64,000 nt of DNA. Source: Phoronis australis. Lineage: Eukaryota; Animalia; Phoronida. Of this stretch, positions 3,201 to 63,779 are shown one piece after another. The notes under the pieces are model-generated. The model was given only the letters and a program-made list of their open reading frames with translations, was not told the origin of the DNA and ran no database searches. A program made the position numbers and the translations under genes. Position 1 is the first letter of the stretch, and every line of letters starts with the position of its first letter. The stretch is taken from the NCBI GenBank assembly GCA_002633005.1, contig NMRA01000209.1:486174-550173 (forward strand), in the 5' to 3' direction.

Positions 3201-4329
3201 GTAAAATAAGAGAATGAGATTCAACAATGAAAATGTTTAACACTGTAAACGTTCTTGAAGATCACTAAGACGGGCTTACATGTATATGAGCCACGTTTTC
3301 AATGGGAGTGGCTACAGATCCCGTTTTCATAAAAGGTGATTTCAGTAGGCGTTAATTTCACTACTAACTGGAACTAAACGAATTTGATGTGCAAACCAGG
3401 CCCGTAGCCCGTGAGGGGGGGGGTTCGCGTTAAAGTAGGATACATGTGGGCAACAACACCAAAACTGTTATAGCTACTGGTTCTACTAACTGCAATGATA
3501 ACTAAGTTAGTCATAATTTTGAATTTGCTTCAATTAAAGCGTTTCTCGTACTCAGGCCCAGTGGTGTTTGCGTACATCTAGATGACAGGATCGTGCAAAC
3601 GAGGCTTCATGTTATTAATGGACAGAATGTGCGTGGTGGCTACAGCATAGGGTGACAACGGAGTCTAAAAGTTAGGTTAGCTATATAGCAACGAGAGATT
3701 TCCAAAAATTTTACTACGATGTGAATCCCTTAAAATCGACTAAAAACTTTCGTACTTGAATAAAGTGTTCTCTTGTCAACCAGTGTCAATGATCACGGCC
3801 TGGCAAACTTCAAACGAGCAACAAACTTTGTTTGATGGAAAAGATTTCTTAGGTGACATGTCACTATTCTGAAGATTCACTACTCTGAAGGTCCAAGGTT
3901 CTTTACCTTCGAAAATTCACTACTTGGAATGTCCACAATTACAAAACTACAGAAAACAATTGCAGACGGTTTGATACACGTCGTACAAGACATGCGCATG
4001 CCTCGCATGTGGGCCCATTGGACTGATCACCTGGAACTATTTGTATGCATCATTCATATATGGTTAAAAACAAACCCACGACCTCGAGTAAAGAAAGCGG
4101 GCTCTTATCAACCACGCTACACTGCTTCCTCTAATTCCTATACCATAACTCCGATAGTACATTGCTCTGGTTTTCAACTAATGAGTTTAAGCTAACATGA
4201 ATGAAGTATTGTACTTGTGTCCTTTTAGAAACCACTTAAAGGGTTTCAAAATTGGATAATTCCTCAAAAATAGATTATTCTTTACAAATGAGCCTAGTCC
4301 CGATCACTGCCAATCGTGATTCCTGAATT

Positions 4330-5670
4330 TAATAGAGAAGGCAACTTTTTCATGTCATTTTTAGTAGAAATACGGTTCATTGATTACCCCACCTACATAC
4401 ATATTTCATTTAATTAAGACTTCCCGTAATTTTATTTATTAGTCGTACCCTACTGCGGAAGTGACGTTTAAGGAGTTACAAAGTTTCCGCCACTTTGTTT
4501 CTGCGATTGAATTTACTCTCGTTTTCGTCCTGGTTTCCTAAGTTTGCCGTCACCACTTCATATCGGCGAGTACTCTACAAGCTAGGTTGTTAGAGAACTA
4601 AATACATTGGATGCCTAGTTTTTAGCAGCCTGAAAATGGCTGAAGTGGGCGACCCACATCACAGACACAGTGACGTGGTGACGAGGAATGTTTTTACTAA
4701 AGTCAGTGGGTGGATATATGTTTGAACCCGAGTTAAGAGAGGAAGAATACGCACAGATAGCTGTTGAAAGGTTGGAATGCACAGTGTGCACTGTTACATG
4801 TATACCGACTCCTATGCTCTTCCCAAGGGACGGTGACTTGAGCACCCAAACCGCTTACACCCCGCCGCGTTACTCCATTGCACACACCTGGCACGTTCTA
4901 ATTAGCTCAAATACTTTTAGTTAATAAAACCCTTAATAAATTTGACACTCCGGCCTATAAACTGGAACACGAACTGTCCTCCTCACTGGGTGTCGAACTG
5001 TGTCTGTATTCACTCCCACTACTAGACATCTCTGCAAGGCTGCTTACAGTACATGCAGGATATGGACTGAAGGTAACACCAGCACAGGGCGTATCACTGC
5101 TAGTTCCCGTAAATTCCACGCTCTGGGGTACGTTCGGAGTTATGGATGATACGATATGAAGAGGCTCCAGTCATTGAAGAGGTCACACACACCTCACTTC
5201 AAAATGCACTCCTGGGGGTCGCGACGGGACACTGCCGCGAATCAACCTCGTTGGTTTTGCAGGAACTTTGATCAATTTCAAGTTCATGACTCTATCGTAA
5301 TCCGACGACAGAAAATGCTTGCCACTCACTTGGTTATTCTCCGCCGATATGTATGTTGCATGGACTGGTAACGCTGCGCTCTTCACACAAACGAGCCGAG
5401 CACGGCGCAGTAAGCATGTCATATGTCGGAAACGATGGCATAGCCGCGTGTGACGATAATGAGTACATCTCAGTACGCAGCAACCATGCGGTGTGTTGAC
5501 TGACCCGTAAACAAACGCAAACGAAGACTGCACTTAACGCAACTAATGTAAAACAATAACCGACTCGACAGCCTACACACTAAAAGTATATGCAAACAAA
5601 ATGGCGTGAAATTCATAACTCCCTCGACGTCAATTCCGGAGTAAGGCACGACTCATCAATAAAATTACTG
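4330..5670 (-). mobile_element. Degenerate Kolobok-like DNA transposon with convergent THAP-transposase and KolX-like remnants
   Basis: Minus-strand THAP remnant (GCCVLRCTH...GKHFLSSDYDR...LIRGSVPS, 5183-5533); plus-strand YMFEPE...C-rich KolX-like start (~4715-4820); left end GAGAAGGCAACTTTTTCATG...CGGAAGTGACG matches the terminus of the 41097 element; inverted copy of that motif at ~5626-5670. Confidence 0.7.
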
Positions 5671-7815
5671 GGGAGAGAGAATTTCTTCAGTTCTGTAATT
5701 TATTTTGGACTGATGTGCATGGTAGAATTGATGTTGGCGTAGTCTCTGAATTTTGCGATTCCACAGCGAGTTACCTCAAGGAAGACGATGGTGCCCTTTT
5801 CGTCAAACTTATGTACAAGATTTTCTTCACACATCACAGAAGACAACTCATTTAAACTCCCGGTTTTCGAGCTTCTTTCAATTTTCGTTCAGTGGAATCT
5901 ACTAGCAACTAGAAACTGTCTTGCGATTTGANTGATTGTGGCAAGTCACAGAAACTGCATTGTTCCAGTCGATTTGTTGTTTCACCACAAAGACTGAGGA
6001 ATGGACAGAAGGAGCTCAGAGGGTCTGGTGCTCACCGTTAGTGACAGGTCCCATAACGCGTGAAGGTTGGCTATACGGCCTACCCAGTCAACATGGCAAT
6101 ACTGGGTCATTTCTACTGGCTTGTACCTATTGTACCGTATATCGTTTTACCGTACTGAGCCGATGTTGGCCCAATACCGATTGCTGTTACTCAGACCAGC
6201 TAAAATGACTATCGTTTAAACAGTACACGGCCAGTGCAGCTTTTTAACGTCAAAACTAGAGTTTGTTGGCTTGAAAGTGTACTGTTTTGATAGTACAGGG
6301 CCAATGTCAGCCCTGTGCTTACTTCACCTGTATCACAAAGAGATGGCGACGTTCACACCAGATGACAGTCTTTTATGTAAGAAACCATACTTGAAAGGAT
6401 GGTAGTTCAGTTGACAGAGAGTTTGGTGTTTATATTACACTGCAGCTGTACTTCTTGAGACTTAAAGGAAATATTAGCTATTATTGATAATAGTATTGCC
6501 AATCAGCATGCAGTTTATTATATCAATTTATAATTTTAAGTTAACCGTTTGACTTATCAGTACCATGTTGCCTGTGCCCTGGCTGTAGCTGTGCTGTTGG
6601 GGGGTGAGGGGGGGGGGCACAACCATTAAATATCCCGGTACCCATGCTTTAGAATGATCCTAATAAAAGGCCTTTGACAGCAAAAACCTACGTTGTCAGA
6701 ACAGAAACCCTAATGTTCAGTCATAGTGCATTCAAAACCTTAGCATGTTTTCTTGAGGTCATTTTCTAGCAAACAGTCAGAGGAAAAATTACAATGAGAT
6801 CAGAACGATGTATTAACACAATTTCTTGAGTGAAAAGGCCAAATTACCAGACAATGATTTGAGACTCTAAGTCCGTGAAGCGTCTTCTCGAAAATCACAC
6901 ACAGTATTGTCAAAACCCTAACTGGTAAAATGGGAATAAACAGGTACCACTTGATAATAGCTGCAGGGATCTAGTTTTCACTGAGTAACGGCAATGTCCG
7001 TTATTTAGTATAAACTGGTTCCAGGCAGCCATGGATTGAGAATGAAGAGTCCATTTCCCACCATGGAAAACGAAATCAGCTACTAAAAACAAAATAAATC
7101 TTACACAGGAGGGAAGAACCCCCATTCCTGAAAGCGTAGATCTACCACTGCAGTTAAAGTGGCAGAGCTGTTTCTGGTGAGTTCCTTTCACTCGATGTTG
7201 GTAAGATCTTAAATTTGTGAACTTCAACGTATTACTACGAATGAATGCAAATATGAGTGATTAAAGACATATAGAGGCATACATCTCCTGTTTTATACAG
7301 AAAGTGGTCCCCGTCTGCGAGAATTACACATATCTAGAATATTGAACTTTTTAAAACGCATGTTTATACCCTTGTAAAACCGATTCCACTCAGTGGCGTT
7401 GTCAGTTGTCTTCAAAACATAAAATCTCGACACAAGGCAAGTTCACAACTTATTGCTTTCAGTGGTTGGAGTGGAGCTCATATACTTGTAGGTGTTTTTT
7501 GGTTTATAGTCGATTTCGTTCATATTTCATTTTGGTTTGAAGTTGGCCATTTTTGACCTGGCGATATGGACTCAATACGCTTTCTCAAAGCTAGTACTAG
7601 TATGCTAAAACTCCTGTAGCATTGTTTAAAGAATTCAACTTGGTGAAGTTTTTGAAAAAAAAATGCCTCTAGTGTTCAAAAAATGTTAATGGGGTCTTTG
7701 GTCACCGTTGTTTGACAGAATTTCTGAAGACAGGAAAAGTATGTCACATTATTAGGTACGTTATCTTCTACATGTATATGACATGAGAGTTATCATGTTT
7801 ATAATTTAACTTGCA

Positions 7816-9875: not shown

Positions 9876-12369
9876 CAGGTCTTATTCAGGCCCGCTAGTG
9901 GCTCGATCTGTCCTCACCGTCAAAGTTTAAAAACTGTTCACAGCTTGAGGAGCTTTCAGGAAATGTTCAACCCAATATGAAAGAGGAAATGACAAATGAG
10001 TCATGTAAATGGTTAAGTAGAAGACAGCATTGTACATTGACTTGAATAGTAGAAAATGGCAGTGAACTCGTGTGACATATCTGATTTCAGGAAAGATAGC
10101 ATTTAACATTTATTTTTTCCGTTATCTAAAAAGTCATTTCCGATCCTATTGTATACCCAAACATCGGAAATCCCAGTTTTCCTTCCAAAGCAGAGATAGT
10201 TTTAGGGCTGTGCCCGCATCGTTGACTCGTAAAAATTCTCTTGATTATCTTGGGTTGCTTCACTGGGGCCAATTGATGCATTGAAATGTGTCGACTGTGC
10301 ATGCTGGCCCTAAAGGTTTTCCAAAATGACTCATAGAATGGAGGTGTTGTGGGTCACTTTTTTCTAAAATAAACCTTGAAATGCGAACGACTGCGTTTAA
10401 AAGGTAAGTTTTACTGGCAAAGCAAGGAGCTATGCTTCAGATTATTTTATGTACTGCACCTTCAAGCACAACACAGATATCAGTTTTCAACCGTTTTCGT
10501 TTGTGATGGCCCAAACACAATATCTGAGATAGCGTTCATTCGAACATATATCATAAGTAAGTGGACAAAAATTCCATGAGAACTGGACTATACACTTAAG
10601 TGAAGTTTTTGTTTGTTCAATAATGCAAATTAGTTTATTACCATGTCAGCTCCCATGGAGGATGATGTCTGAATAATTCAAGGTTTATCAAACAGCACTA
10701 ACGTATGATAACCGGAATTGGAAGAAGCTTAGAGAAACATCCTGGCAAAAGCTGAAGGACTGCAACACGGTGGATTGGCATAGATGAAAAAGAAAGAGCT
10801 GCATGTATTACAAATGTTTCCGCAGAAAAACTGCCGCTTTGCCCAGCTGGCTTATAACATGTCCTGCAATACTGCTATAGAAGACTAAGCATAACAACAA
10901 GAATTGAAACGGCACATAAAAAGGCATAGCAGCGTTTCAAGACACCAACAGAAGTAGTAAAGATAAAGCTGCCGAAAGTTATGCAGATGTTACCCAATAA
11001 ATTCTATTAGACTTCGAAAATCTGAAACACCAAATTAACTTTAAGTTCAAATATTTTGACACATTAGTGGGTCATTTGCGAGCAGGAAAAGCATATTTTG
11101 GACCACGCTTCAAGAAAGCAAAGAAGGAGCAATTTTTTAGCTTCAAAGACAACACTGGTATGTGTTTTTGTTTTGTGAGGTACATTCCAAGTGTATTAAG
11201 TATTTTCACCTGTTGGTTGTTAGCTTGTTCAGCCCCTAGACTTCCCAGGCCTTAGACAATAGTGCTGTCTCATCTGACTTTGTAGAGATGGTGTCCACGT
11301 CACTTGTCCTCCATATGCCGAAGCTTCTCGGCGAATTATACATCACACTGATTAAAAGATCAAAGTCGTGTTGGTATAACATACATGTAAGACTGTACCT
11401 TTTGAACACTAGAGGGGTGCCTTAAGAGACAGTTAATATTTTTATCCGTCACCAGCTTGAATAAATACTCCTGAAATCATGGAATGACCAACAGGATTCT
11501 TAGCATAAGAGTCAAAAGACACACGCGGTGCTGTTCTCAACCATTCCTTGACAACTAGTCAAACTGTAAATTGATCTGGTGTTCATATCCTACACAAGGA
11601 TAATGCTACCCTCCGACTCCTCAAAACGGAGACTATGCATGTACGGTTGAACAATGCTGAGCGCTACCTCAATAGAAACATTGATTAATTTGAGCTCTAA
11701 CTGTTTTGACTTCTGATCTCTCACCTGAACAGTTTGTTCTCCACCTGAGTCGCCTGTTTAAGTATGTGATCTGTTTCCTTGAACATGGTTTAAGGTAATA
11801 AACCGAAACGTTGGATAGATATGTCGTTATTTACTTACGCGCTAATTTTTAAATTCGGCATGGACGTAAGTAAAGCCCGTCATTATGATGTTTTGGATTA
11901 TATTTCCACAATTACCGGGAAATCACGAAAACCCTTCATAGTTTATTGAGACTGGCCAATCCTAAAACTACGAATTCCAAAAAGCACAGGTACCTTAATT
12001 TCGTAACATGTCTACTTTTTCAAATGGCTAGATTTGCCTTCTGTACTGAACTACTTACAATATTGATTAATACTCTTCATCCTCATCATGGCTGTCATCT
12101 ACTCGCTGGAAAGATGAACAAGGCAGATTAAAGTGTGTGAGGGAAACTACAGGCGCACACATCATCTTTTATTGCTTGAAACAGATTTTATTAAGTGAAA
12201 GTGTCTTTAACGAATTCTCATTATTAAGGTTAACGCTTACAAAAATAGTCAAACACCCTAACTAATTGAGTTGTGCCAACCAATCACCTAGGACAGTCTT
12301 GTACTTACATTTCGTGCAACTGTACTTTTGTCTATTTATCTATTAGTTTTATTTACTGTTAACACTTAC

Positions 12370-19639: not shown

Positions 19640-22600
19640 AGTAGTCTCTGGGTGACCAACTGACTGGTGTTGTTAAAATTCAGATATGATCAGCATTTGA
19701 CATTAAATTTAGCATGGCGGCTAAACTTCAAGAACAAAAAATCGCTGATAAAATTTGTATTTAACATCTTATCCCTTTTAATCAAAGTATGATTAGATGG
19801 GACTGACTTCTGATTCAATCATCTAAAATCATTAAGATGTGACTGAATACTGACTGAATTATTTTTAAATACAAATACTGCATTGATATGTGTATTTACG
19901 GTGTCAAATATTTTATCGAAACTGTTGTCTTGACATCATAGTCACATTTATGACCAAGTGTATATTGATTTGCCACCGGTTTCAATTAAAAAAGTTCACA
20001 CAAGGGAACTAGAGGCCCAGGGCAAAATACATCAGTCTAAAGTTGCTCAGAGGCGTGACGTGGATCACAGCCTCGCACAGGCGGCTTGTTTCATGGCAGC
20101 AAGATGACAGAGGAGCAGCTAGCATTGTGGAAAATGTGGGCCCCATAGCTTTCATAGGTGAGAATCGCCCTGCAGGACTAATCATCCCACATACACAAAA
20201 AGCGAACAACACAGAGAAGCATGTGATGCCAGAATTGAAAGAGATGCATGCCTCCTTGTGAAGATGAGATTGACTGCATTTTCACCCTTCTCCAGAGGAC
20301 CTACACTACGAAATGCCATCAATGTGTTTTGTCGCCTACAAAGACGTCAAATTGCATGAATTTCATGTTTTCCCCGTGTGTGAGCGGGCGTCGGTTATTA
20401 CCGACAGGTGCTAAGAACTTTCGGTTGGACATTAGACTGAAGACGGGTTCGAGTTAAGCACTTTATTAATCTCAACCTTCCGAAGAAATGTTTTACGTTC
20501 CAGCCAGTGGTGCGAAGCGTTGACTTGTGCAACTTATGCAACACTTTCAGCAGCTCCACTGTAACTCTCCAGAAACTATTTTTGATCCAACTTGTTCTTC
20601 TAGCTATTGTTGGTGGTATCCCGGTTGTGTAACTTGTACCTTGAGGAGCCTTGAGGAAACGGTGAGCTTTGAGATCAGTCCATGCCAACCGTCCCTCTCT
20701 GAAGACAACTTGGTCTTGAAGAAGGGTGACAACCCTCAACTGTCTCAAGCTGTGTATGACTCCTGTTTCAAAGCCCATACACTTGTAGGAGCTGCAGATT
20801 CTACACCTTCAGCACACCTCTAAACTGAAAGGAATGTACTTGACGTGGAGCCTTGTTGCACAATCTCAAATGGAAGGAAGACGATATGTACGGAGAGTTT
20901 GTCCGAGCATATGCTGACTTCAAGCAAATCACTTTGAGACAGCCAATGTTGCCTTTGATGGGTATGTGGCAGACTCTTCGATAAAGTGTAACACGTAGCA
21001 GAGACAGAGAGCGACCAGCATCAATCCGACTGTGAACTTCATTGGAGAAAACAAATTTCATGGAGGGAGAGACAAATTCCAATCCATCGGCAGTAACAAG
21101 CAACAACTCATTGCCTTAATGAGTGATCAGCTTCAGAAAGTGGGATGCACAGTCGTTCAGGCTGAAGAGGCGCTGATGTGAACATTAAAAGGACAGTATT
21201 AAACAGTACAGTTGTGTAGTTGACCAAAGTAATCGGCGAGGACACTGACCTGTCGATGCATCTGTTCCATTACTATATGGCTGACGAGAAACCAATTATG
21301 TTTCAAATCAGACAGTTAGTCAAGAATCAATCTGAAACTATACGACTAAAGTTAAATGAAATGTGTGCTCGGTACAAGTTGTGAGCCCAGCTACTATTCC
21401 AGCATTCCTTCATAAAATGCGACCCAACGGCTTGTTGTTTATGGCGTTGGGAATAATCAGTCTTTCAGAAACTCGCGAAAGACGACCACGTCCCGCTGAG
21501 AGAGAAAAACTTGGCAGCCAAGTAATTGTTGCATGTTTGGTCGGGACAGCATATGTTCTCTGGTAACAATGCGTTACTGCCGAAATCACCAAGAAGGTTG
21601 CTGCTGCTAAGTCTTTGTTTTCTCCCGACAGTGTTCCAGCAGCTGAACCAGTCATAAGTTTTCATAGTCTCTGAGTGTACTACCAGGTCATGATATTAAC
21701 AGAAATTAAAAATCTTCAGCAACAAATCTTGAAAATGCCTGGTGATCTTGTTGAATCCTGTTTCCGTGGCGGATTTACACTTTCAATGTAGCAATTTAAT
21801 CAGTTTATCGCGTTCCAAACCTTTTCAAATAAAGAAAAGGGTTTATATTTTGAAGTCATTGACCCATAATATAACTGTGCAGCCTCGGTACACATTCTGC
21901 GACAGCGCATTCCAAACCCTCTAGTTGATTAGATTGCAGTCAGGAATTTGTGTAAAACATGTTGTAATCAACCCAAAAAAACTCTTTCAGCACCTGAAAA
22001 CACCATCTTTACTTCAAAAATGTAGCACCCAACCTGTAAAATATTTCTGTGACACAACACTTAAAAACATACTTCTGAGTAACTTGATTGCAAAGAGTCA
22101 CCATCTTTGATAATAACACAAAGTAATAGGTACGCTAATTTGGCATTTGTTTTTTGAGTCACAAAAGTATATTTGGAGCCCTGAAACGAAATCACAGTGT
22201 ATCATTACAATTATTTATCTGACAAATACATTGATATGCACAAGTTTTGTGCAATATCAATGAACGTTTTTCAAAAAATAGCGGTTAAAGCTCAAAACTT
22301 TTGTTTTGGAAACCCGATTAAATGATAATGATTTTCAGTTCTTGAATTTTAGCTGCCATCAAACTGTACATAATTTTTAACGACACCAATGAGTCTCTCA
22401 CCTCATTAGAATAGAACCAAAAAGTATGTCTCTATCACAATTATTGGAAAAATTATACCGGGTATCTGTTTTTAAGGATCTCGAAATTTATGGTGGCCAT
22501 CTTGGAAATGATGCAGTTTTAATCCATCCCATTTCTGGTTGTCAGAGTTTCGTCAGAATTTTTTCCTGTTGATGGATATGCACAATAGGGTATAACACCA

Positions 22601-29600: not shown

Positions 29601-29978
29601 CTGCCTGCACGAGACATGCTCTTCAGAACCAGGGTACAGCTATATTTATCTCATTGGGTACTGTATGAGTTCGTCCGATGTAACAAAGTCTCATGCAGCA
29701 AAACTCAAAATTTGAATATTTTAGCATACATCAAAACTTGGGTTATACAGTATTGCCCATACAATATTATTTTTCAATAGGCCTACAATACGTCTTTAAC
29801 GACAGTCCTGTATCTGAAATTGAATGATGAAATGACAGCATTCAACTGAGAATATCCCAGACAACACTTCAACACAAGTTTGGGGCTTTTTCATAAACAT
29901 CTTCAATCTTTTACATGAATGTGCTTTTCTTATGCTTTTATTTTTGCAAAAATCTCTGTTCAACTACGTAGCAGCACT

Positions 29979-30102
29979 GGGTCAAGGGAGTCGTGGGTCG
30001 AGGGGGTCATGGGTCGAGGGGGTCGTGGGTCAAGGTGGTCGTGGGTCAAAGTGGATCGTAGGTCGAGGGGTCGTGGGTTGAGGATGTGGGGGTCGAGGGG
30101 GC
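29979..30102 (+). repeat. G-rich minisatellite of GGGTCGT/GGGTCGAGG units
   Basis: Repeated GGGTC cores over ~125 bp. Confidence 0.85.
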
Positions 30103-34667: not shown

Positions 34668-35343
34668 NNNNNNNNNNNNNNNNNNNNNNNNNNNNNNNNN
34701 NNNNNNNNNNNNNNNNNNNNNNNNNNNNNNNNNNNNNNNNNNNNNNNNNNNNNNNNNNNNNNNNNNNNNNNNNNNNNNNNNNNNNNNNNNNNNNNNNNNN
34801 NNNNNNNNNNNNNNNNNNNNNNNNNNNNNNNNNNNNNNNNNNNNNNNNNNNNNNNNNNNNNNNNNNNNNNNNNNNNNNNNNNNNNNNNNNNNNNNNNNNN
34901 NNNNNNNNNNNNNNNNNNNNNNNNNNNNNNNNNNNNNNNNNNNNNNNNNNNNNNNNNNNNNNNNNNNNNNNNNNNNNNNNNNNNNNNNNNNNNNNNNNNN
35001 NNNNNNNNNNNNNNNNNNNNNNNNNNNNNNNNNNNNNNNNNNNNNNNNNNNNNNNNNNNNNNNNNNNNNNNNNNNNNNNNNNNNNNNNNNNNNNNNNNNN
35101 NNNNNNNNNNNNNNNNNNNNNNNNNNNNNNNNNNNNNNNNNNNNNNNNNNNNNNNNNNNNNNNNNNNNNNNNNNNNNNNNNNNNNNNNNNNNNNNNNNNN
35201 NNNNNNNNNNNNNNNNNNNNNNNNNNNNNNNNNNNNNNNNNNNNNNNNNNNNNNNNNNNNNNNNNNNNNNNNNNNNNNNNNNNNNNNNNNNNNNNNNNNN
35301 NNNNNNNNNNNNNNNNNNNNNNNNNNNNNNNNNNNNNNNNNNN
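34668..35343. other. Assembly gap (676 N)
   Basis: Run of N. Confidence 1.
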
Positions 35344-41096: not shown

Positions 41097-42438
41097 AGGC
41101 GAAGGCAACCTTTTTTCATGTTACTTTTAGCAAAAATAAGGTTTATTGATTATCCGAGACATATTTTTCACTTAATTACATCTTTTCGTAATTTGATTCA
41201 TTTCTCTTCCTCTACTCCTGAAGTGACGTTTTGGGAGGCAAGAGTTTCGAGCCAATTTCTTTTCATTATAATCTGACAGTGAGAGCAGTCGAGTCAGTCA
41301 TTGTTCTACCTCGGTTGTGATAACTTCGGTCATCGTTTGCTTTTGTTTACAAGTCAGTCAACATGCCACGCCCCCTGTTGCTGCGTGCCGGGATGTACTC
41401 ATTATCGTCTCACACGCGCTTTGGGTACCTTGCGTCGCTTTCCGAAGGTTGACACACTTCGCCGTAATTGGCTAGCTCGTCCATGTGAAGAACGCAGCGC
41501 TACCCGTCCACGCAACGTACAAAGCAATGGAGGGTTACCGAGTATGTGGCAAGCATTTTCTGTCGTCAGACTATGACAGATACATGTATGTACGCTGAAT
41601 TGATGAAGGTCCCTGCGAAACAACGCCTGAAGAAGGGTACCATACCGTCGCTGTTGATTCCCGGGAGTGCCCCGTCGCCAACCCCGAGAAGTGCGTTTTT
41701 GAAGCAAGAAGCCTCGCGAGCTGTGGCCACTATATACAGTGACTGGAGGCACTTCATCTACTGTTACCCGTGCCTCCAATCGTACCCGATTGCATGCAAT
41801 TCTGGGAAATAGCAGTGATTCGCCCTGTGCTGTTCTCGCTAACACAGAACCTGTAAGCAGCCCTGCAGCGATGTTGAGTTGTGGGAATGAATACAGGCCC
41901 AGTTCTAAACCCAGTGAAGAGGACAGTTCGTCATCCAATGAACAGATCGGTGAGCCTACATGTAAGTTTGATAAGTTGATTGTGGACTTGTATTGGAGCT
42001 ACTTAAAAGGTGCCAGGTGTGTGGCGCGGGTTTCACACGGCGGAATGTAAACAGTTTGGGTGCTCAGATCACCCTCCAGTGGGAGTGTGTCGCAGGACAC
42101 TCGGGCAAGTGGGACAGTTCTTCTTCTGTACGTGAGACGATAATGAGTACACCCCAATACGCGGCAACAGCATGTTGACTGACTCGCAAACGAAAGCAAA
42201 TGACGACCGAACTTATCACAACTGAGGAAGAACAATGACTGACTCGACTGCTCTCACAGTCAGACTCTATGAAATGAAATTAGCGCGAAATTCTTGCCTC
42301 CCAAAACGTCACTTCCGGAGTAGACGACGAGTAATTAAGTAAATTACGAAAAACAGTAGATAAGTGAAAAATATGTCTGGAATAATCAGCGAACCTTATT
42401 TTTGCTAAGAATTGCATGAAAAAAGGTTGCCTTTGCCT
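41097..42438 (+). mobile_element. Kolobok-like non-autonomous transposon with THAP pseudogene and ~315-bp inverted ends
   Basis: TTAA|AGGCGAAGGCAACC...GGTTGCCTTTGCCT|TTAG; THAP remnant CCVPGCTH...FPK...W...RVCGKHF...LKKGTIPSL from ATG 41363; zinc-ribbon-like RCQVC...WECVAGHSGKWDSS at 41993-42125. Confidence 0.85.
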
Positions 42439-54097: not shown

Positions 54098-54930
54098 CTA
54101 GGCTAGCGCAAGCCCCTCGCCAGCTCGCCATTGGCGAATTTTGAGGCGCACTGGCAATGGTGGAGCTAAGTCAATTCGCCAACTTGTCCAATATTTTCGC
54201 AACTTAAAAATAATAATTTCGAGAAACCTTCCCGGTGATTGGGGGAAATCCTACCCAGTTTTTTTTTAAGGTCACAATCAATGAAATTTCTATATGGCCA
54301 ACTTGGTGAATGTTTTCGAAACTCCAAAATAATGATTAAATTCGGGAAACCTACCCGTGGATTGGGGGAATTCCTGTCCAAATTTTTTAGGTCAACATCA
54401 ATGATATTTCCGTGTGGTTGGCGTACCCGCCCTAAAGAAGGGATAGGAGGGAACCCCTGTCCCAGTGGTGGATTTAGAGGGGGCCAAGGGGACCATGGAC
54501 CCCCTAAAATTCCATTTGGCAGTACGGGGATGCGAATTTCTGACGGGCAAAATCCTGGCTAATATTCTGCCCTGGGCCCCCTAACTCAAAATCCTGGATC
54601 TGCCCCTGTGCCCAACCGAAGTTTTTAAGGTATCATTTAATTGCCCATGTGGCCGGCGTACCCCCGCCGTAACCTTGGGATAGGGTTAACCCAGCCCAAT
54701 TTTTAGGTCTACGTTAATGAAATGCCTGTGTTTCCTGAGTTACCCTGTCGTAATGCGGGTATGGAGGGGAAGCCCTTGCCAGTTTCTAAGGTCAACATCA
54801 TGCCATGTGGCTGGCCTAACCCAGCTGTAACCCGGAGAAAGTATTGGGCTAAAAATTTTTGAAAATTGCTAAGTTTTCAGATGTTTTAGCCATTTTGGCT
54901 AATACCTTTGAAAGTCTAGCGCGAGCCTAG
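54098..54930. mobile_element. hAT-like element with internal diverged tandem repeats and nested MITE (54463-54608)
   Basis: CTAGGCTAGCGCAAG...CTAGCGCGAGCCTAG flanked by CTACG/CTATG; nested MITE flanked by TGTCC/TGCCC; recurring TTTT(A)AGGTC..ATCAATGA units. Confidence 0.75.
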
Positions 54931-56451
54931 CTATGTTCTGTAACAATAAAAAATATTTCAAAAAGAATCTTTACACGAGTACTTTCTCATGTTTATACTC
55001 AGCATGGCCTATTTTCTCTGCATGGCTGTCAAGTGGAAAACTCATTCATCAGATTGGGCCGGCTGTTCACAAATTAGATACGAGCACAAATTTTTTGACC
55101 GCGAAATTTCTCTAGCTTTAGTAGTATTTCACCAAAGGTCACGGTCTTGCATTTTGTGGGTGAACTGAATTAATGGCGGCCATAAGATGTCCGAACAGTC
55201 GTGTCTAAACCCTACACAGGTACACTCCACATCAAAATGCTGGATCCGCTCCTAGAAAGCGCAATAAATTCAATAATTAATCCACTGAACAGAAACACCA
55301 TAAGCTGTTTAAATGTCCCGTGACCTCTTTAAAAAGTCCCACGACCGGTTTAAAAAATTAGCGACCAGTTTGTAAAAAAAGGCGTCGTCATCGTTAACAA
55401 CGTCTTCATGGAATTTGGTTCAAATTATGCTTGACAGCAAATTGTCCATAGCCCATTGAAACTGAATAAAGCTGACTAAGTGGTCAGTTGCCGAAAGTCT
55501 AATCAGCTACATGTATGATCAACGGATTATAGTCACCACACTATAAACGTCATCACGTTTTCATAATCACACGCATAATTATCTCTGTTATTCAACAGAA
55601 GATGTTATTGTCGATAAATAAATGTTACATGCACACCACAACTAGTGTCCAGCACGAAAACGACCACAGAAAGTAAGAGAGAAGTCAGGAAAGAAGTTGT
55701 TTAAGAGTACAGGAAATGTTGAAAAAGTAAAAAGTATACCAAAATTCTTTACCAAATGTAAATTTCTAATAACGAGTTGTCTTTCGTTAGTAGCGCACAG
55801 TCAACGTTGAGTTCTTGTCGTAGGAAAACTAACGTACACAATCTTTTTTCTATCAATTTTTTCTCCTAGATTTTATGAACAGTTCGGTACAGTTGACATG
55901 GTTATTTTGCATTTTACTTCAGACAAAATAACAGTTGGAATTTGTCAGTTTAATCGAAAAATCTTAAAACGTTTAATTCAACATCAGAACAGGAACTCAC
56001 AAAATTTTGATAAGTTAGACAAATGGGAACAGCTGCAAAACAGAAGAAATCAGATTAATGATCGAGGGCTAGTTAATTTTTCGAACATGTGAATCTTCAC
56101 AAACAACTAAAGTCGTACAGCCTGTTTTTTGATTTATTTAATTGCCATCACAATATTGTGAACACACCTGTACCCATTCATCGCAAGCTCTATGCTTTAT
56201 ATGGAGTCACTCACACCCTCTTGTCACGCAGTAGCGCCCGCACACCCACACAAACACACAGAGATACTCGTATGCTCGTCAGGGTCAAGTCTCCTCTGAA
56301 AATCACTGCAATGTATGTAGCACATGCGTACGTTAAATTTGTGGATCACACACGGAAAACATTTCCTTAACATACATGTATATTGCATAACATCCACCAA
56401 CTCACCGTCACTATAAATATTTATATAACGTCTTTACCAGTCAACAAATCG

Positions 56452-56689
56452 TGACGTAATGGTCATAGTTCCTGTCAGAGGTCAACTAAGAAAGCGATTA
56501 TCAGAAAATCGTCGGACAAATATTTCTCTTCTGGGAACTCGGACGCGGATGGTCAAATCTGTCTTCTTGATTGGCTAGTGTCTGTTTACAGGACTTGGAA
56601 TTTACCCTTATATGAACCAGTTCCATTTGAAGAAATTCAGAAAAATAGCCTCCACCGAAGATTCAAAATTTACCTCGAAGGTGAAACTG
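56452..56689 (+). promoter_or_regulatory. Putative promoter and non-coding first exon of the peptide-precursor gene
   Basis: TGACGTAA (56452), reverse CCAAT (56570), TGTTTAC (56583), kappaB-like GGAATTTACCC (56597-56607), TTATATGAA (56608), CTG|GTAAGT donor at 56690; acceptor TTGCTTTTCAG lies 8 nt before the ATG. Confidence 0.5.
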
Positions 56690-57379
56690 GTAAGTAGAGA
56701 AGCACTGCGAGTTTTGTTAGGAACAAATGTGTTTGACTTCAGGAAAATAATACAGCGCGCAGTGTCTGATCAAGAATATATAGTTTATGTATATTATTTT
56801 ATGAAAATTGACGTAAAATTAAAAAGGTCTCACATCGTGATTTCGAAAACCAGTCACAGAACTCGCCAGACTGACTCTTGGACTGTAATTTGCTGCATAC
56901 GACTGTTGTTCATTTTCCATAGACAAACAAGCGATCAGTTGGACTGGAGATATCTTTTTCATCAATGCCCGGTCATTGACAGGGATTTGAGGCTTTCAGC
57001 AAAAGACTAAGCCTTCTCTAAACAAGCATGTCATGTGTCCGAAAATAAGACATAAACGAAATTGTCCCAATTAAAACAAAATCAACATTTGTATTGATAG
57101 CCTGAATATCAACAATTGTTTTGATGGCCTGAATCAGCTTAGTGATGGCAGGCCCAGATTAAGACCGGGTTGGCCTTTTCAGTGTGGAAACATGTTCAGT
57201 TTCTTAAGGATGTCCTGGACAGTTTGTTCGAGCTCAGAAAGTATATTCTATCATAGCATGGACAGATCTAGGGACAAAAATAATTTTTCTTGTTCCTGAA
57301 ATTTTGCCTCATACATGTATGATTTGCATTGTACGGTTGATGATATAATAAAAATCATAATTGCTTTTCAGAAACTATA

Positions 57380-57604
57380 ATGAATCTGTCGACTATTCTC
57401 ATCTTCCTTGGCCTCCTGGTCGTTTCCCACTTCCCCGAGAACGCCGATGGCTTCCGTCTTCGAAGGGCTTTCCGCAGAGTTCGTGTTCGCATCCGCCTTC
57501 GTCGTTTGGCCAAACCGGCCTGTCTCGCTGGATGCAGTCTAATTACCAATGCGTGGGGCGCAGCCGCATGTCGTCTCGCGTGCAGCAGAGCAAAACGTGA
57601 CACG
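57380..57604 (+). CDS. Coding exon 1 of secreted precursor: signal peptide, Arg-rich 4-Cys antimicrobial-like peptide and RAKR site
   Basis: MNLSTILIFLGLLVVSHFPENADG|FRLRRAFRRVRVRIRLRRLAKPACLAGCSLITNAWGAAACRLACSRAKR|DT; acceptor at 57371, ACG|GTAAGA phase-0 donor. Confidence 0.88.
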
Positions 57605-59483
57605 GTAAGAGTCATTTGCTAAAGGGATTTTGCGAGAGCTGATGTAGCTGTGTAATGACTACTTTTTTAGAAACATGAATTGCGCGTGATCATAACTTGT
57701 AAACAATTTTGTTTTTCACAAGCCAATTTCAAGGATTGTTGCCAATTTCTATCAAACGAGCAAAGTTGGCGATGATGCTATTGACTGTGTGATCAACAGG
57801 TGAGTTTCAGACGATCATACTGTACATGTATGCGCATTAGATCAATTATTTTTGACGTGTGCTCAGCGATGGCTTTCATTCAACAACTTCGACGTTGTCA
57901 CTTGGTGACTCGACAAATCTAGGTGGACCTTTATCAATTACCTACATATACTGAACCCTAAGTCATATCACCTTAACCAAATAGATCGATCGAAGAAAAA
58001 CACTTGCTACTAGGACATTGGAGAGCCTGTCTGTATTCATTGATTGGACTTTAGTTAGTCGACGGGCCGAATTAAGGTGCGAGCACTGATAAAGATTCAG
58101 CGTTTTGGAATATCCTTATCCACTGAATGAAATTCCCGTGCGCAGAAAGACTCTTTTGAGAACCTGTAACGATTCGTTGAAGAATGCAACGCGCATTTAC
58201 TTTCCATTACCCGACTATACTAAAACCGGAAGGTTATTACTGTACGTAGGACCTTCTTGACACGCGAATTTAGCCAAATATCTAGAAAACTATTCGGATT
58301 TTAACTCAGCACAAGTATACATTTTCCAAAACAACAAAGCCTGGATTTGTTCCTTTTTACCAAATTGCCACTACTTGGGTCACGTTAAATGTCTTTTTAG
58401 TAAAATTTAGCAAAAATGAAAGATACCTAATAACAAAACAACGATGTCAATAAAATAGTCAAAATTGATGTGAGGCAAATGTTCAAGACAAGATTGCAAA
58501 AAGGCCGTTTTGTATAATTTCCTAAAATAGAATAGTTAATGAAGTTATGATCATTGATGGTGTTATCATTATATCAATAACAGTCATAATAACACAAACA
58601 GGACAAGTAACAGTAGCCGAAATAGTAAGTCTGGGTAGGTCCATGTATAATTTTCAATTTAAAATTGAAGAACTTTTAAGGAACTTTGCGAGGATGAGAA
58701 TGCGCCTAACTTGGTCGAACTTCTTGCCTATAATAACTTGACCGTTTCATCGAACTTAACGTTGCTATATTTTTATTTTTAGTCGGAATTTAATGTGACT
58801 TTATTGCATCCAGCCGTTAAAAAGATACTAAACCGTGTTTTGATGATTTCAACCACTCCTTCGTTCTCTCACCTATTAATGTATCATTGATGTCTACCTT
58901 CAAAGTTAAGACAGGAATCACCTAAAAACTCATACTCCCTGTGTCACAGATGGACATTATGGTCCTTGGTGGGTGGTGTTTTACAACGGTTGCCGTATAA
59001 TTCGCTAAAACCCTAGGTCTCGCGTGCCTGTTTAGCAGACATTGAAAGGAGTTTTCAAATTCTACTCCCAAGTTTTGAGGGTTGTCCATGGTTACAGAGC
59101 ATTATTTTGTTTCAGAAAACTGGATGGGAAATTCGTTTTTAGTGTCTGTTAAAAAATCAAAATAAGGTTTGGATTACAATCGTTTATTTGTAAATGAACT
59201 GACATGTACAATGGTCGCGATTTCGACGACACACGTGAAGCCTTATCTGTCAAGTTTTTACCAAAATTGAAGTAATTTCTAATCAGAAGGAAATGCATCT
59301 TTATCCGCGGTTTCTGAATCAAAACTTCGTCGAATTGCGACATCAATTTATTTTGAAAACCACAGTTATGCATGTTATATCAGTAGATCGAAATGTCTTG
59401 TACTTGTAGAGTCCATCTAATAAAAAAACCGCAGGAGCTGTACACGGTTTGAGGGTAATGCATTTTTACACTTCTTTTTTCAG

Positions 59484-59691
59484 ACGTCACAGTTAGCTTT
59501 CCCCATTGAATTTGAGAAATACGATACCAACGGCGACCAAAAGATCAGTCAGGAAGAGTTTCTTGATGTCAGCCAACAGGCCAAAGAAAGTATTGCAGAG
59601 ATATTCCTTGTGGCGGACACCAATAAAGACACATTCTTGGACGAGAGCGAATTCTACACTGCGCCTTTAGAGTTTATTGCTGACGAAAAAG
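59484..59691 (+). CDS. Coding exon 2 of precursor: acidic domain with two EF-hands
   Basis: CTTCTTTTTTCAG acceptor, phase 0; TSQLAFPIEFEKY-DTNGDQKISQEE-FLDVSQQAKESIAEIFLVA-DTNKDTFLDESE-FYTAPLEFIADEK; AAG|GTTGGT donor; absent from ORF track (no ATG). Confidence 0.88.
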
Positions 59692-61041
59692 GTTGGTACA
59701 ATGTAGTTAATTGTATATTTCAGCCACTTCAGCTCTCATGAGAAGCTGCTAGTAATTTTGGCGTTGTGTCAGCAAGCCACTAGGATGCGAACGATTGGCC
59801 GGCCAACCGTGGTATTTCAAATAAATATCGCCGAAAGCAATAATGAAACTATCATCTGACAGCCGTGAACATGTGTTCATATGAAACTTCTTCGGTATTC
59901 TTTGTGTTGGACTAGGAACCAGATAGCTTACTGGTTCCTACTGTGGCATAAGTTGCTACACAAGTCTGTCTAGCAGCAACTGTCAACGCCTTTTAGCAAA
60001 TTGTTCATCGAAAATGACGTTCGCAGGGTGTTAGTTATCTTTTGTAGTCAAACTCTCACTTGCAACAGTGTGTGGGGTGGGGGGGGTATTTTCTACACAC
60101 TAATTAGACTTCAAAGACGCACGGTCTATGGTAATTATGAATGTACATGTCAATCATGGCACGTTGTTCATAAAATAGAGGCAGAATCGACAAGTTTCAT
60201 AACGTGAAATTTAAAACGTGCGGGGACTTCCATTTTAAAATCATATAAATGCAGGAATATTGCAGAACTACGAGTACGGACATCAGGACATAATTTTCAT
60301 GAAAGTTGACGTAATTTTTGTGATTAACTGCATCCGATTCATGTACTTTCAGACACTCTCGATAAAATAGTGAACGACTCAGATTTCGACAACATGGAAT
60401 TAGACGATGCCTGAAACATGGGCGTGGTAATCGTCCTGCACAAGACAGTAACGATGCGTGGACAGCCAATATACAGATTATGCAGGCCTAACAACTAGTT
60501 CTTAAAGCAGTACTGTTCCACGACTATTTTTACTTTCTCCTGTCCATGCATTTCACAGTTCTATAAATCCCATAGGCTGCACTTGATTTACTTAGCCGGT
60601 ACTACCAGATCAACGGCCTAAGGCCTTTCCATTGAATCTGGATAACAACTCCCGGTTTGCAGATTGGAGATGTCTTGGTCAAAGTAATCTAGCGAAACGA
60701 TTGGTGTGCCGCAACAGCCTGTTGGGTTAGAAGGGACCATACATGTAATTCGGTCATATGAGGCAAGAGCAGACCACGGCAAACCCCAATGTTCACATTT
60801 ATCAGCAGGAATAATGTAGATTTAGATCAAACAATTGTTGCAAAATAGAAATTCAAGATCCTCTAGCGGCTGACAGGAAATCTTATTGGGGAAAAAAGTA
60901 TTTCTGTGAAATCTAGATGTGACCTGTATATATTTTTGAAAAAAAAATACTGCATGCAGTTAGTTTGTTGAGTTACTTTTGTATGTAATAAATTGTTGGA
61001 TTATATTTATTTTGCTGTTTCCTGTACACTTTCGCATACAG

Positions 61042-61058
61042 AAGAGCTTCATTACTGA
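61042..61058 (+). CDS. Candidate terminal coding exon (EELHY*); alternative 60559-60566 (VL*)
   Basis: Both follow pyrimidine-rich CAG acceptors and close the frame in phase 1; AATAAA at 61698. Confidence 0.4.
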
Positions 61059-62269: not shown

Positions 62270-62924
62270 TCATCCATTACTATGTTCAATCTTTTTAATA
62301 TTCATGTACTTAAACTTCTTTGGGTTGATTCCATATGCCTTCAGCCTGTCTGACGATATAGTCTCCTTAACATCCAAATGTTTTTTCTTTCCTTTCCTTT
62401 TTCGCTTCCGTTTGCTCGACTCTTCAGGATTCACATCACCCGTTGTTTCACCCTTACTTTCCTTCAACTTTTCTCTCTCCTTCTGAACAATCATACCCCC
62501 AGTTTTGGCAACACTGCCATCGACATCACCATTTGGTTTCCGCTTTTTCCATTTGTCTGTCTTACAGTTTCCATCAGTTATAGAATCACTATCAACACTA
62601 CAACCCTCTTTCAACACACTGTCAACATCCCCGGTTAGTTTCCGTTGTTTCTTCTTTTTTCCATTATCACTTCCAGTAATTGTAGTATCACTGGCCAAAT
62701 TAGTGTTCTTTTGTGACAGAGCCCCAGAACCAGCATCTGAGTTTATTATTTTCTTCTTTTTGTCCACATTACTTCCATCATCCATAACTTGAGTGTGCTT
62801 GCAGTCTACACCATCCATGTTCAGGGCCTTGGCAGAGGTGACAGTTTCAGCAGGCTTCTTTCTCTTTCTCCTTTTCTTGCTCACACTTTGCTGAGGCTGG
62901 GCTTCAGTAGCTTCCTCCGCAGTC
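62270..62924 (-). CDS. KRI1: Last coding exon of probable KRI1 homolog (40S ribosome biogenesis factor)
   Basis: TCTCTGTTCTCAG acceptor; Lys-rich low-complexity tail ending ISSDRLKAYGINPKKFKY, matching the C-terminal motif I recall for metazoan KRI1 (RL.A[YF]G[IL]NPK[KR]); upstream exons not seen in window. Confidence 0.75.
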
Positions 62925-63480
62925 CTGAGAACAGAGATACTCAAAGATGGAATTGTTTTTCACAGAGTGAGGATTTATGTAACAAAAGTCCACTACTATT
63001 AAGTCTAAGTTTGGAAAACATGTCACCTAGGGCCCCAGCAGATGGATAATTACCAGCTGAGTTGTGGAACTCAAATATGCAGGAGCTGTCAACTCAGGCA
63101 TGGTCCACTTGAGGAAGTCAATGAGCTAATTTCAGTTCTATCCATCTGAGCTGGCTATAGACCCTATTCACGCCGACAGGAGGCGCATTCCAAAACGAGG
63201 CTCGCTACGATAGCTCTGTTAGCTTATCGGCATAGTTCTGTGTTTCAGACCGTGTTGTTCGGCGAACGGCTAGAAAAAATACGGACACGCAACTGTCTCC
63301 TTCACAATCTCTAAAGACGTTGAGATTCGGAAGCGTTGGGTCGTTTCCACGACGAAGCAAAATATGTCCATGTAAAATTTATAAATGCTTTCGAAAAGTT
63401 AGATCATATTTTGTCACATGTCGGTCAGTTGTTAAGCATCATAGTAACGACTGGAGAATGGGCCAGCCAGGCTGTGTTTT

Positions 63481-63779
63481 CATGACTACGGATTTAGGGG
63501 GGGGGGGCATAGCCCCCCCTAAAATTGTATCAGATCCCATTTGTGAGTGTGGGTGCGAATTGCTGACTAGCACACGTGCACAACCAGGGCGGGTCTTGGT
63601 AGGTGAATAAACAACGCATAGGCGCTGAATGAACCCCGTTTACCGTTTTTTTTTAGTCAACAGGAAAGAAATCAAGACCTCTGTATCCCCAGAGTTTAGG
63701 CTGGGCACGCACATCTGCCAAAATACTGCTCATTACTGTGCCCTGCCCCCCCTAACTGAAATACCTGGATCCGCCCCTG
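63481..63779. mobile_element. hAT-like MITE in the KRI1 intron
   Basis: CGGATTTAGGGGG...CTGGATCCGCCCCTG termini shared with the 23618 family. Confidence 0.7.

Follow-up and report, generated by a model that had tools for sequence, protein, structure and literature searches.

On the forward (+) strand of the window, by which we mean the whole 64,000-nucleotide stretch of Phoronis australis DNA analysed here, lies what is likely a spliced gene, predicted from its sequence to encode a secreted precursor of 164 residues in three exons. Exon A (57372..57604; all features below are on the + strand) would comprise, directly after an AG, 8 nt of predicted 5′ UTR and then codons 1-75 from an ATG at 57380 that has A at -3, and its GC fraction is 0.57 compared with 0.37 in the following intron. 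Splice sites on the + strand of the window were ranked with a rough, self-made consensus matrix, by which the acceptor at 57372 reaches only the top 12%, the exon A donor (ACG|GTAAGA) the top 0.52% among 3832 GT sites and the exon B acceptor (TTTTTTCAG|) the top 0.06% among 3591 AG sites. The last two sites are both in phase 0, and we infer that they join exon A to exon B (59484..59691), which carries an EF-hand pair with loops at 59523-59558 and 59616-59651, across a predicted phase 0 intron of 1879 nt (57605..59483). The sole in-phase internal exon candidate in this intron, at 57800-57904, is weak. A sequence-only reading of this DNA had proposed the same phase 0/0 splice (57380-57604 to 59484-59691), and the translation is as it described, with both sites strong and in phase.

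After exon B, which ends in phase 1, would come a second, phase 1 intron (59692..60352; donor G|GTTGGT, top 3.6%) and a last coding exon (60353..60414) for an acidic tail with 7 Asp/Glu in 19 codons before a TGA. An alternative short last exon of 5 codons (61042..61058) has an equal acceptor score (1.92). We consider 60353-60414, and with it the 164-residue precursor, more likely because it is nearer to exon B, because it is unique among 1241 AG-started open 19-codon stretches in having at least 7 Asp/Glu, and because a predicted polyadenylation signal (AATAAA, 60987..60992), with TGTA before it and T/G-rich sequence after it, lies 3′ of this exon and upstream of the 61042 acceptor. The earlier model thus stands for exons A and B, but the last exon implied by its end at 61058 is the less favoured one. 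Upstream, a non-coding first exon at 56410..56689, with a TATA-like site at 56412 and a top-0.1% donor at 56690, is a speculative addition to the model; a second candidate donor for such an exon lies at 55673. Further signal-like frames of the window, such as minus-strand ones at 10927 and 21042, lacked a convincing exon structure, and no second copy of the gene was found within the 64 kb.

Anatomy of the predicted precursor

The precursor opens with a predicted signal peptide (57380..57451, residues 1-24) that has the highest 10-residue hydropathy (3.5) among the ATG-started frames listed for the window. Signal peptides are cleaved after small residues at -3 and -1, and both are present at the predicted cleavage site after A-D-G. 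What follows is a linear Arg/hydrophobic arm (57452..57514, residues 25-45) containing 10 Arg and 1 Lys; finding 10 Arg within 17 residues has a probability of about 1e-8 against the window background. In residues 33-41 Arg alternates with aliphatic residues, giving a hydrophobic moment of 1.72 at 170 degrees versus 0.12 at 100 degrees, and residues 25-33 have a moment of 0.88 at 100 degrees. The next segment (57521..57583) runs from C48 to C68, with Cys at residues 48, 52, 64 and 68, i.e. CX3C-X11-CX3C, and is Ala/Leu-rich and nearly neutral (net charge about +1 and GRAVY 1.04 for residues 46-69). It is predicted to form a helix-loop-helix: single-sequence AlphaFold2 modelling of exon A placed helices at 32-52 and 58-74, with pLDDT of about 75 at residues 51-70 and a mean of 59. 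Foldseek returned no match to this model at E<=0.001, and a fold comparison gave only generic helical matches, the best Z of 4.9 among 48161 chains being uninformative.

The segment is followed by R-A-K-R, a predicted proprotein-convertase site (57587..57598, residues 70-73) with Asp next. Cleavage there and trimming to residue 71 would leave a 47-residue peptide (residues 25-71) with 12 Arg, 1 Lys and no Asp or Glu, a net charge of about +13 and a computed mass of about 5.33 kDa when reduced. Two further sites of the RXRR type, both R-L-R-R, lie inside the arm at 26-29 and 39-42, at which convertases could fragment it. Exon B encodes two EF-hand loops (residues 89-100 and 120-131), each with D, N and D at loop positions 1, 3 and 5 and E at loop position 12, and matches Pfam EF-hand_1 (E 3.4e-11; 42.3 bits versus a cut-off of 25.4). 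The exon B model was of low confidence (pLDDT 58) and the EF-hand pair did not form in it. The pro-piece has a net charge of about -20 with the 60353-60414 exon and -13 without it, so that the charges either side of R-A-K-R are opposite: +12 for residues 25-69 and about -20 for the 91-residue pro-piece. Translation of both exons therefore agrees with the earlier description of a signal peptide ending A-D-G, a peptide with 12 Arg, 1 Lys and no acidic residue, four Cys spaced CX3C-X11-CX3C, an R-A-K-R site and two 12-residue EF-hand loops. Its expectation that automated annotation would call the product only an EF-hand protein also held, Pfam recognising nothing in exon A.

To put these features against chance, we searched 100 dinucleotide-block shuffles of the window with patterns taken from the same sequence, a choice that limits the shuffles to showing the rarity of such features only. 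The combination of signal, CX3C pair and furin site occurred once in the real window and in 0 of the 100 shuffles, as did the EF-pair pattern. The CX3C pair alone is a weak motif since it occurred 39 times in the 100 shuffles.

Relatives and known precursors

Word-index searches of proteins used single exons rather than the spliced protein as queries, by which close relatives can be missed: none of 232 candidates was confirmed for exon A among proteins of 133-2000 aa, none of 29 for exon B among those of 122-2000 aa, and no candidate arose for exon B among those of 37-121 aa. Exact look-up found none of five frames, pattern matches on metagenome contigs yielded no confirmed relative (0/249 and 0/594), and Rfam had no match across the window. 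In the ESM Atlas there was no match for exon A and, for exon B, generic unnamed EF-hand clusters at 0.91-0.92. A PDB search by sequence gave no relative of exon A (one unrelated match, E 1.1) and, for exon B, hit neuronal calcium sensors at E>=1e-5. In line with the earlier statement that no recognised named family fits, none matched the mature peptide in the Pfam, protein, PDB, ESM Atlas and metagenome searches. A HMMER scan with exon B gave 616 matches at E<=0.001, of which the best 150 listed span 178-2639 aa with a cut-off of 46.5 bits and a best single-domain score of 30.5 bits; two-loop relatives would rank among the 466 below them. The 35 inspected matches of up to 345 aa among these 150 are generic multi-EF-hand proteins with no basic Cys peptide, and the 150 include no mytimycin. 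Searching with the EF-hand exon, as had been suggested, returned EF-hand proteins but, among the matches inspected, none with a basic Cys peptide.

The closest plan that we found in the literature is that of the mussel mytimycins, whose precursors carry a signal peptide, an antifungal peptide rich in Cys, a dibasic site and an EF-hand pair in that order, the role of the EF-hands being unknown according to the authors (PMC8004829). The Phoronis precursor shares with them the signal peptide (several from Perna and Modiolus likewise end A/T-D-G), a Cys-containing cationic peptide, a basic convertase site followed by an anionic C-terminal EF-hand pair, a length close to their roughly 150-160 aa, a non-coding first exon if ours is real and, judged by eye, a similar spacing from basic site to first EF loop. 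The loop regions have 8/17 and 7/13 identities by eye with one Perumytilus mytimycin, but these sit on EF-hand consensus positions, where unrelated proteins match equally well. Unlike mytimycins, with their 10 invariant and 6 accessory Cys and a charge of 0 to +10, the Phoronis peptide has 4 Cys in a CX3C pair, a linear Arg arm and a charge of about +13, and its gene has an extra acidic tail exon; by the 10-invariant-Cys array it is not a mytimycin.

Equinin B, an antimicrobial peptide (AMP) purified from Actinia equina, likewise derives from a signal/AMP/prodomain precursor, and its closest database match is a 147-aa, two-exon, EF-hand-annotated protein (PMC11051070). It is cationic and has Cys at CX3C spacing (counted from Table 2), although the text leaves the position of the EF-hand unstated. 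Its eight Cys (CX3CX3CX3C-X5-CX3CX3CX3C, our count) set it apart from the four-Cys Phoronis peptide, which lacks the two CX3CX3CX3C runs; its charge is spread through the Cys region with no linear Arg arm, and it was modelled on aurelin, not as a hairpin. Myticalins resemble the Phoronis gene in that a cationic peptide rich in Arg follows the signal and precedes a dibasic site and an anionic C-terminal extension. The exon plan is also alike, an intron lying directly before the ATG and a single exon then encoding the signal and the mature peptide as well as the dibasic site and a few residues of the pro-piece (PMC5577615). However, myticalins are linear and Pro/Arg-rich, with no EF-hand mentioned in the text consulted, and their intron after the dibasic site is in phase 1, whereas the Phoronis peptide has 4 Cys and its gene a phase 0 intron, which excludes it from the family.

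The C-X3-C-Xn-C-X3-C spacing and predicted helix-loop-helix are also those of plant alpha-hairpinins and CS-alpha/alpha toxins (kappa-KTx, vil14a/flf14), a scaffold described as convergent in plants, scorpions and cone snails (PMC11722136); the Cys pattern by itself is not enough to classify a peptide (PMC7191063). The precursors differ, those of plants being vicilin-linked or multi-module whereas here a single module precedes EF-hands, so that the Phoronis peptide is not an alpha-hairpinin proper. Amphioxus BjAMP1 (PMC4683396), termed alpha-hairpinin-like (as mBjAMP1) in a cited title, and the ascidian turgencins (PMC7024374) are likewise helical, disulfide-bearing cationic AMPs of marine invertebrates. 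BjAMP1 has 97 aa, two Cys, no EF-hand and an anionic region before a C-terminal cationic peptide, an order reversed in the Phoronis precursor, and turgencins have six Cys. Overall, the precursor layout is not new and is already known for defence peptides of mussels and sea anemones; novelty, on prediction from sequence, seems to lie in the cargo, in which Arg and hydrophobic residues alternate along an arm attached to an almost neutral hairpin with two disulfides. The claim of a new combination of CX3C-helical peptide and EF-hands accordingly survives for the unmatched mature peptide and not for the layout. In the literature seen, which mostly excluded subscription papers, we found neither a precursor joining Arg arm, CX3C pair and EF-hands nor a cross-phylum class of EF-hand AMPs.

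Proposed function and competing explanations

We think that the gene probably encodes a secreted host-defence peptide masked by its acidic EF-hand pro-piece until convertase cleavage. In such a scheme, the signal peptide would be removed after Gly24, Cys pairs 48-68 and 52-64 would staple the helical hairpin by the Cys1-Cys4 and Cys2-Cys3 bridges of the alpha-hairpinin and CS-alpha/alpha scaffold, and the Ca2+-loaded pro-piece would neutralise the Arg arm in the secretory pathway and so protect the producing cell. A furin-type convertase would then cut after Arg73 and a carboxypeptidase trim Lys72-Arg73 to yield the 47-residue peptide, of which the arm, outside the cell, may act as an amphipathic strand binding anionic microbial surfaces while the hydrophobic hairpin inserts into the membrane. 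The antimicrobial reading is supported by the sequence anatomy, the splice phases, the opposite charges, the beta-amphipathic arm, the helix-loop-helix model and the mytimycin, equinin B and myticalin precedents. The sequence agrees with the earlier proposal that a cationic peptide is secreted and freed by a convertase from an anionic EF-hand pro-piece, for which mytimycin and equinin B are tested precedents. With its CX3C repeats and an EF-hand-bearing closest database match, equinin B makes CX3C plus EF-hands less unprecedented than was claimed. AMP genes typically show conservation, hypervariability and expansion into gene families. None of the three was seen here since no homologue of either exon was found, which weighs against the antimicrobial reading. 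We also count against it that the 3 kb upstream yielded no NF-kB-like site, the closest one being at 54365, that the 64 kb contain a single copy, that the two RXRR sites could break up the arm, that synthetic equinin B showed only weak activity (MIC 0.25 mg/mL; PMC11051070), that the intron phase of myticalins differs, and that the same Cys motif occurs in K+-channel toxins and protease inhibitors (PMC11722136, PMC7191063).

A bolder and tentative extension, which we hold rather doubtful, would see in the acidic EF-hand pair a mobile carrier module, encoded by an exon, that serves as a Ca2+-dependent mask and is shared across animal phyla by unrelated cationic defence peptides (mytimycins, equinin B and the Phoronis peptide), and in the Phoronis gene the founding representative of an AMP family not yet described. 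If so, the pair would work like cathelin or BRICHOS pro-domains, and its exon could serve as bait for many more. Unless activity or a family emerges for this single gene, the importance of the locus is moderate, many invertebrate AMP candidates being predicted yearly. Should it prove active, the peptide would be a new AMP candidate with salt tolerance, one that annotation by domains files only as an EF-hand protein, and the two halves (47 residues, about +13; 91 residues, about -20) form a small, easily made pair for a direct test of masking and its Ca2+ dependence.

The released peptide might instead act on animals, be they predators, prey or competitors, as a toxin or cytolysin built as a cystine-stabilised alpha/alpha hairpin whose Arg arm serves membrane targeting, but we regard this as unlikely. 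Cone-snail vil14a has a middle loop of 11 residues. Scorpion kappa-KTx, cone-snail vil14a/flf14 and nemertean B-IV share the Cys spacing or the hairpin fold (PMC7191063, PMC11722136, PMC4278219). However, solved toxins in the PDB gave no sequence match, the hairpin is nearly all Ala/Leu/Gly with one Arg, the Cys motif is described as convergent (PMC11722136), and both EF-hand-bearing precedents found were isolated as antimicrobials.

Somewhat less probable still is a reading in which the functional product is the EF-hand half, secreted as an acidic protein that binds Ca2+ and serves in mineralisation, adhesion, mucus or the buffering of Ca2+, while the basic N-terminal part is a sorting, anchoring or inhibitory pro-segment and is discarded. 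The canonical ligands kept in both loops and the Asp-rich tail would suit it, as would amphioxus genomes, in which EF-hand genes specific to that lineage form arrays and are linked to calcium balance (bioRxiv 10.1101/2022.05.18.492404). A discarded pro-segment, however, needs neither four regularly spaced Cys nor a strictly alternating Arg/aliphatic run, and the N-terminal Cys-rich part is the isolated active piece in mytimycin and equinin B.

We find it improbable that convertases also cut at the R-L-R-R motifs, after R29 and/or R42, so that the products would be a nearly neutral hairpin and a short linear Arg piece instead of one 47-mer. Furin disfavours Leu at P1′, and Leu follows the 39-42 site whereas Asp follows R-A-K-R. 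In addition, dibasic motifs are common within intact linear AMPs such as molluscidins (PMC5577615). Finally, an in-frame stop 15 nt past the exon A donor would allow exon A to be a single-exon peptide gene (80 codons with donor read-through) or a relic and exon B part of another EF-hand gene, but this is highly improbable given strong, phase-matched splice sites, the lack of another EF-hand exon or credible partner exon within the window, and a joined order that gives the known precursor plan with a distance between basic site and first EF loop that is, by eye, similar to that of mytimycins.

A predicted precursor and its 3' end

Translation of exon A (57380-57604, + strand) yields a hydrophobic leader ending in A-D-G, residues 25-71 (numbered from the Met encoded at 57380), which include 12 Arg and a single Lys and lack both Asp and Glu, cysteines 48, 52, 64 and 68 forming a pair of CX3C motifs, and a furin-type R-A-K-R at residues 70-73, all as the sequence-only reading had described. 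The two 12-residue EF-hand loops it placed in exon B (59484-59691, + strand) are likewise present, with D, N and D at loop positions 1, 3 and 5 and E at 12, and both sites of the proposed 57604-59484 splice are in phase 0. Exon B matches Pfam EF-hand_1 (E 3.4e-11); a Pfam search with exon A matched no family. The combination of signal, CX3C pair and furin site occurs once in the window, as does the EF-pair pattern, and each was found 0 times in 100 shuffles; the CX3C pair by itself occurred 39 times over 100 shuffles. The GC content is 0.57 in exon A versus 0.37 in intron 1. The feature is real.

The 3' boundary of exon B is in phase 1. For the gene, an end at 61058 had been proposed, which is compatible with a 5-codon exon (61042-61058). 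We favour 60353-60414 as the predicted last coding exon, because its acceptor scores equally, it lies closer to exon B, it offers an acidic continuation (7 Asp/Glu per 19 codons, the sole such case in 1241 AG-started open stretches on the + strand) and 3' of it come TGTA, AATAAA (60987) and a T/G-rich stretch, all 5' of the 61042-61058 acceptor. Exons A and B of the proposed span are retained and its end is revised. With this last exon the precursor would comprise 164 residues, the 91 C-terminal to R-A-K-R carrying a predicted net charge of about -20. More speculatively, a non-coding first exon is suggested by an AG located 8 nt 5' of the start codon, together with a donor of very high score at 56690.

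Known precursors and the search for relatives

In the available text of PMC8004829, mytimycin precursors have a part order identical to that of the predicted Phoronis australis precursor, and their EF-hand, whose role the authors call unknown, was in their view probably acquired as an exon. The Phoronis peptide is not a mytimycin, because mature mytimycins have 10 invariant Cys, versus Cys 48, 52, 64 and 68 here, and membership was ruled out on that count. The nearest precedent for a CX3C peptide joined to an EF-hand is equinin B, which the sequence-only reading did not name. As far as the accessible part of PMC11051070 goes, equinin B was purified from Actinia equina, its precursor runs signal, AMP, prodomain, its closest database match is EF-hand-annotated (147 aa, two exons), and the synthetic peptide is weak (MIC 0.25 mg/mL); it has eight Cys with CX3C spacing, by our own count, versus four here. 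The predicted precursor may work like those of mytimycin and equinin B and, as tested, belongs to neither. The precursor plan is already known; what appears new is the cargo peptide.

Partial texts of further sources describe myticalins as sharing the exon plan, but as linear peptides with a phase-1 intron, versus a CX3C pair and a phase-0 intron here (PMC5577615), amphioxus BjAMP1 as having the reverse part order and no EF-hand (PMC4683396), and turgencins as having six Cys (PMC7024374). The literature covered, largely without subscription papers, held no account of such a peptide type and no cross-phylum class of EF-hand carriers; that the EF-hand pair is a mobile mask common to unrelated defence peptides across phyla is the boldest idea here, and less likely than not.

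Word-index protein searches of mostly microbial collections, with exons A and B queried separately, returned no relative, and exact look-ups, metagenome contigs, ESM Atlas, PDB sequences and fold searches gave nothing specific. A full HMMER scan with exon B gave 616 matches; among the 150 listed, scores are sums over many EF-hands, the best single stretch reaches 30.5 bits, and the 35 short proteins (345 aa or less) examined contain no basic Cys-rich peptide. Since the collections were mostly microbial, the exons were queried separately (exon A against proteins of 133-2000 aa, all longer than its own 75 codons) and 150 of 616 matches were listed, this is a weak test and a lack of relatives is not established.

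Peptide anatomy and putative mechanism

The charge of the peptide sits within residues 25-45, the Arg-rich arm. Arg alternates with Val, Ile or Leu across residues 33-41, where the hydrophobic moment is 1.72 at strand periodicity versus 0.12 at helix periodicity; the amphipathicity of residues 25-33 leans to helix, and residues 46-69 are near-neutral and hydrophobic. A single-sequence AlphaFold2 model, with helices at 32-52 and 58-74 and pLDDT of ~75 across 51-70 and <50 across 20-43, supports a predicted hairpin around the Cys residues and is unreliable in the arm.

The locus probably encodes the precursor of a host-defence peptide that would be masked and then released by cleavage. Judged from sequence features, the signal peptide would be removed after Gly24, and two disulfides would form, 48-68 and 52-64, a pairing we infer from the Cys motif. 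The acidic pro-piece, predicted to bind Ca2+, may mask the +13 peptide in transport; cleavage after Arg73 would be followed by trimming back to Ala71, the arm could attach to anionic microbial surfaces and the hairpin could insert into the membrane.

The released peptide might instead be a toxin directed at animals, which we consider unlikely; the CX3C...CX3C hairpin recurs in plant alpha-hairpinins, in scorpion kappa-KTx and in cone-snail vil14a/flf14, a recurrence considered convergent in the portions available of PMC7191063, PMC11722136 and PMC4278219. Slightly less credible is that the EF-hand part is the functional product and the basic segment is discarded. The arm also holds two further R-L-R-R sites, absent from the sequence-only reading, and its fragmentation by cleavage, in place of one intact peptide, is improbable. 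That exons A and B are unjoined is very improbable; by our own rough splice matrix the donor at 57605 ranks in the top 0.52% among 3832 GT sites and the acceptor preceding 59484 in the top 0.06% among 3591 AG sites.

Other features of the window

The window is gene-poor, with ~40% GC; TACATGTA occurs in 37 copies versus ~2 expected from base composition. Such a profile is consistent with a marine invertebrate. A stop-terminated, Lys/Asp-rich open frame of 229 codons (62273-62959, - strand) is likely the terminal exon of a gene for a nuclear protein, in convergent orientation; it gave no Pfam match and no meaningful PDB match. A THAP-domain remnant (41283-41573, + strand; Pfam E 6.9e-4, below cut-off) and diverged DNA resembling it (~4329-4500, 5594-5671 and 42298-42433) are probably decayed transposon sequence. 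At 21042 and 10927 (- strand) lie short frames that open with ATG and include hydrophobic stretches resembling signal peptides; the DNA around them, read directly, has no convincing exon structure. An assembly gap of 676 N spans 34668-35343, and tandem repeats of 117, 16 and 27 nt occupy 1-244, 29978-30078 and 57081-57134, the last ~240 nt 5' of exon A. A degenerate repeat with a period of ~120 nt (54178-54841) adjoins a short interspersed element that recurs at 63719-63779.
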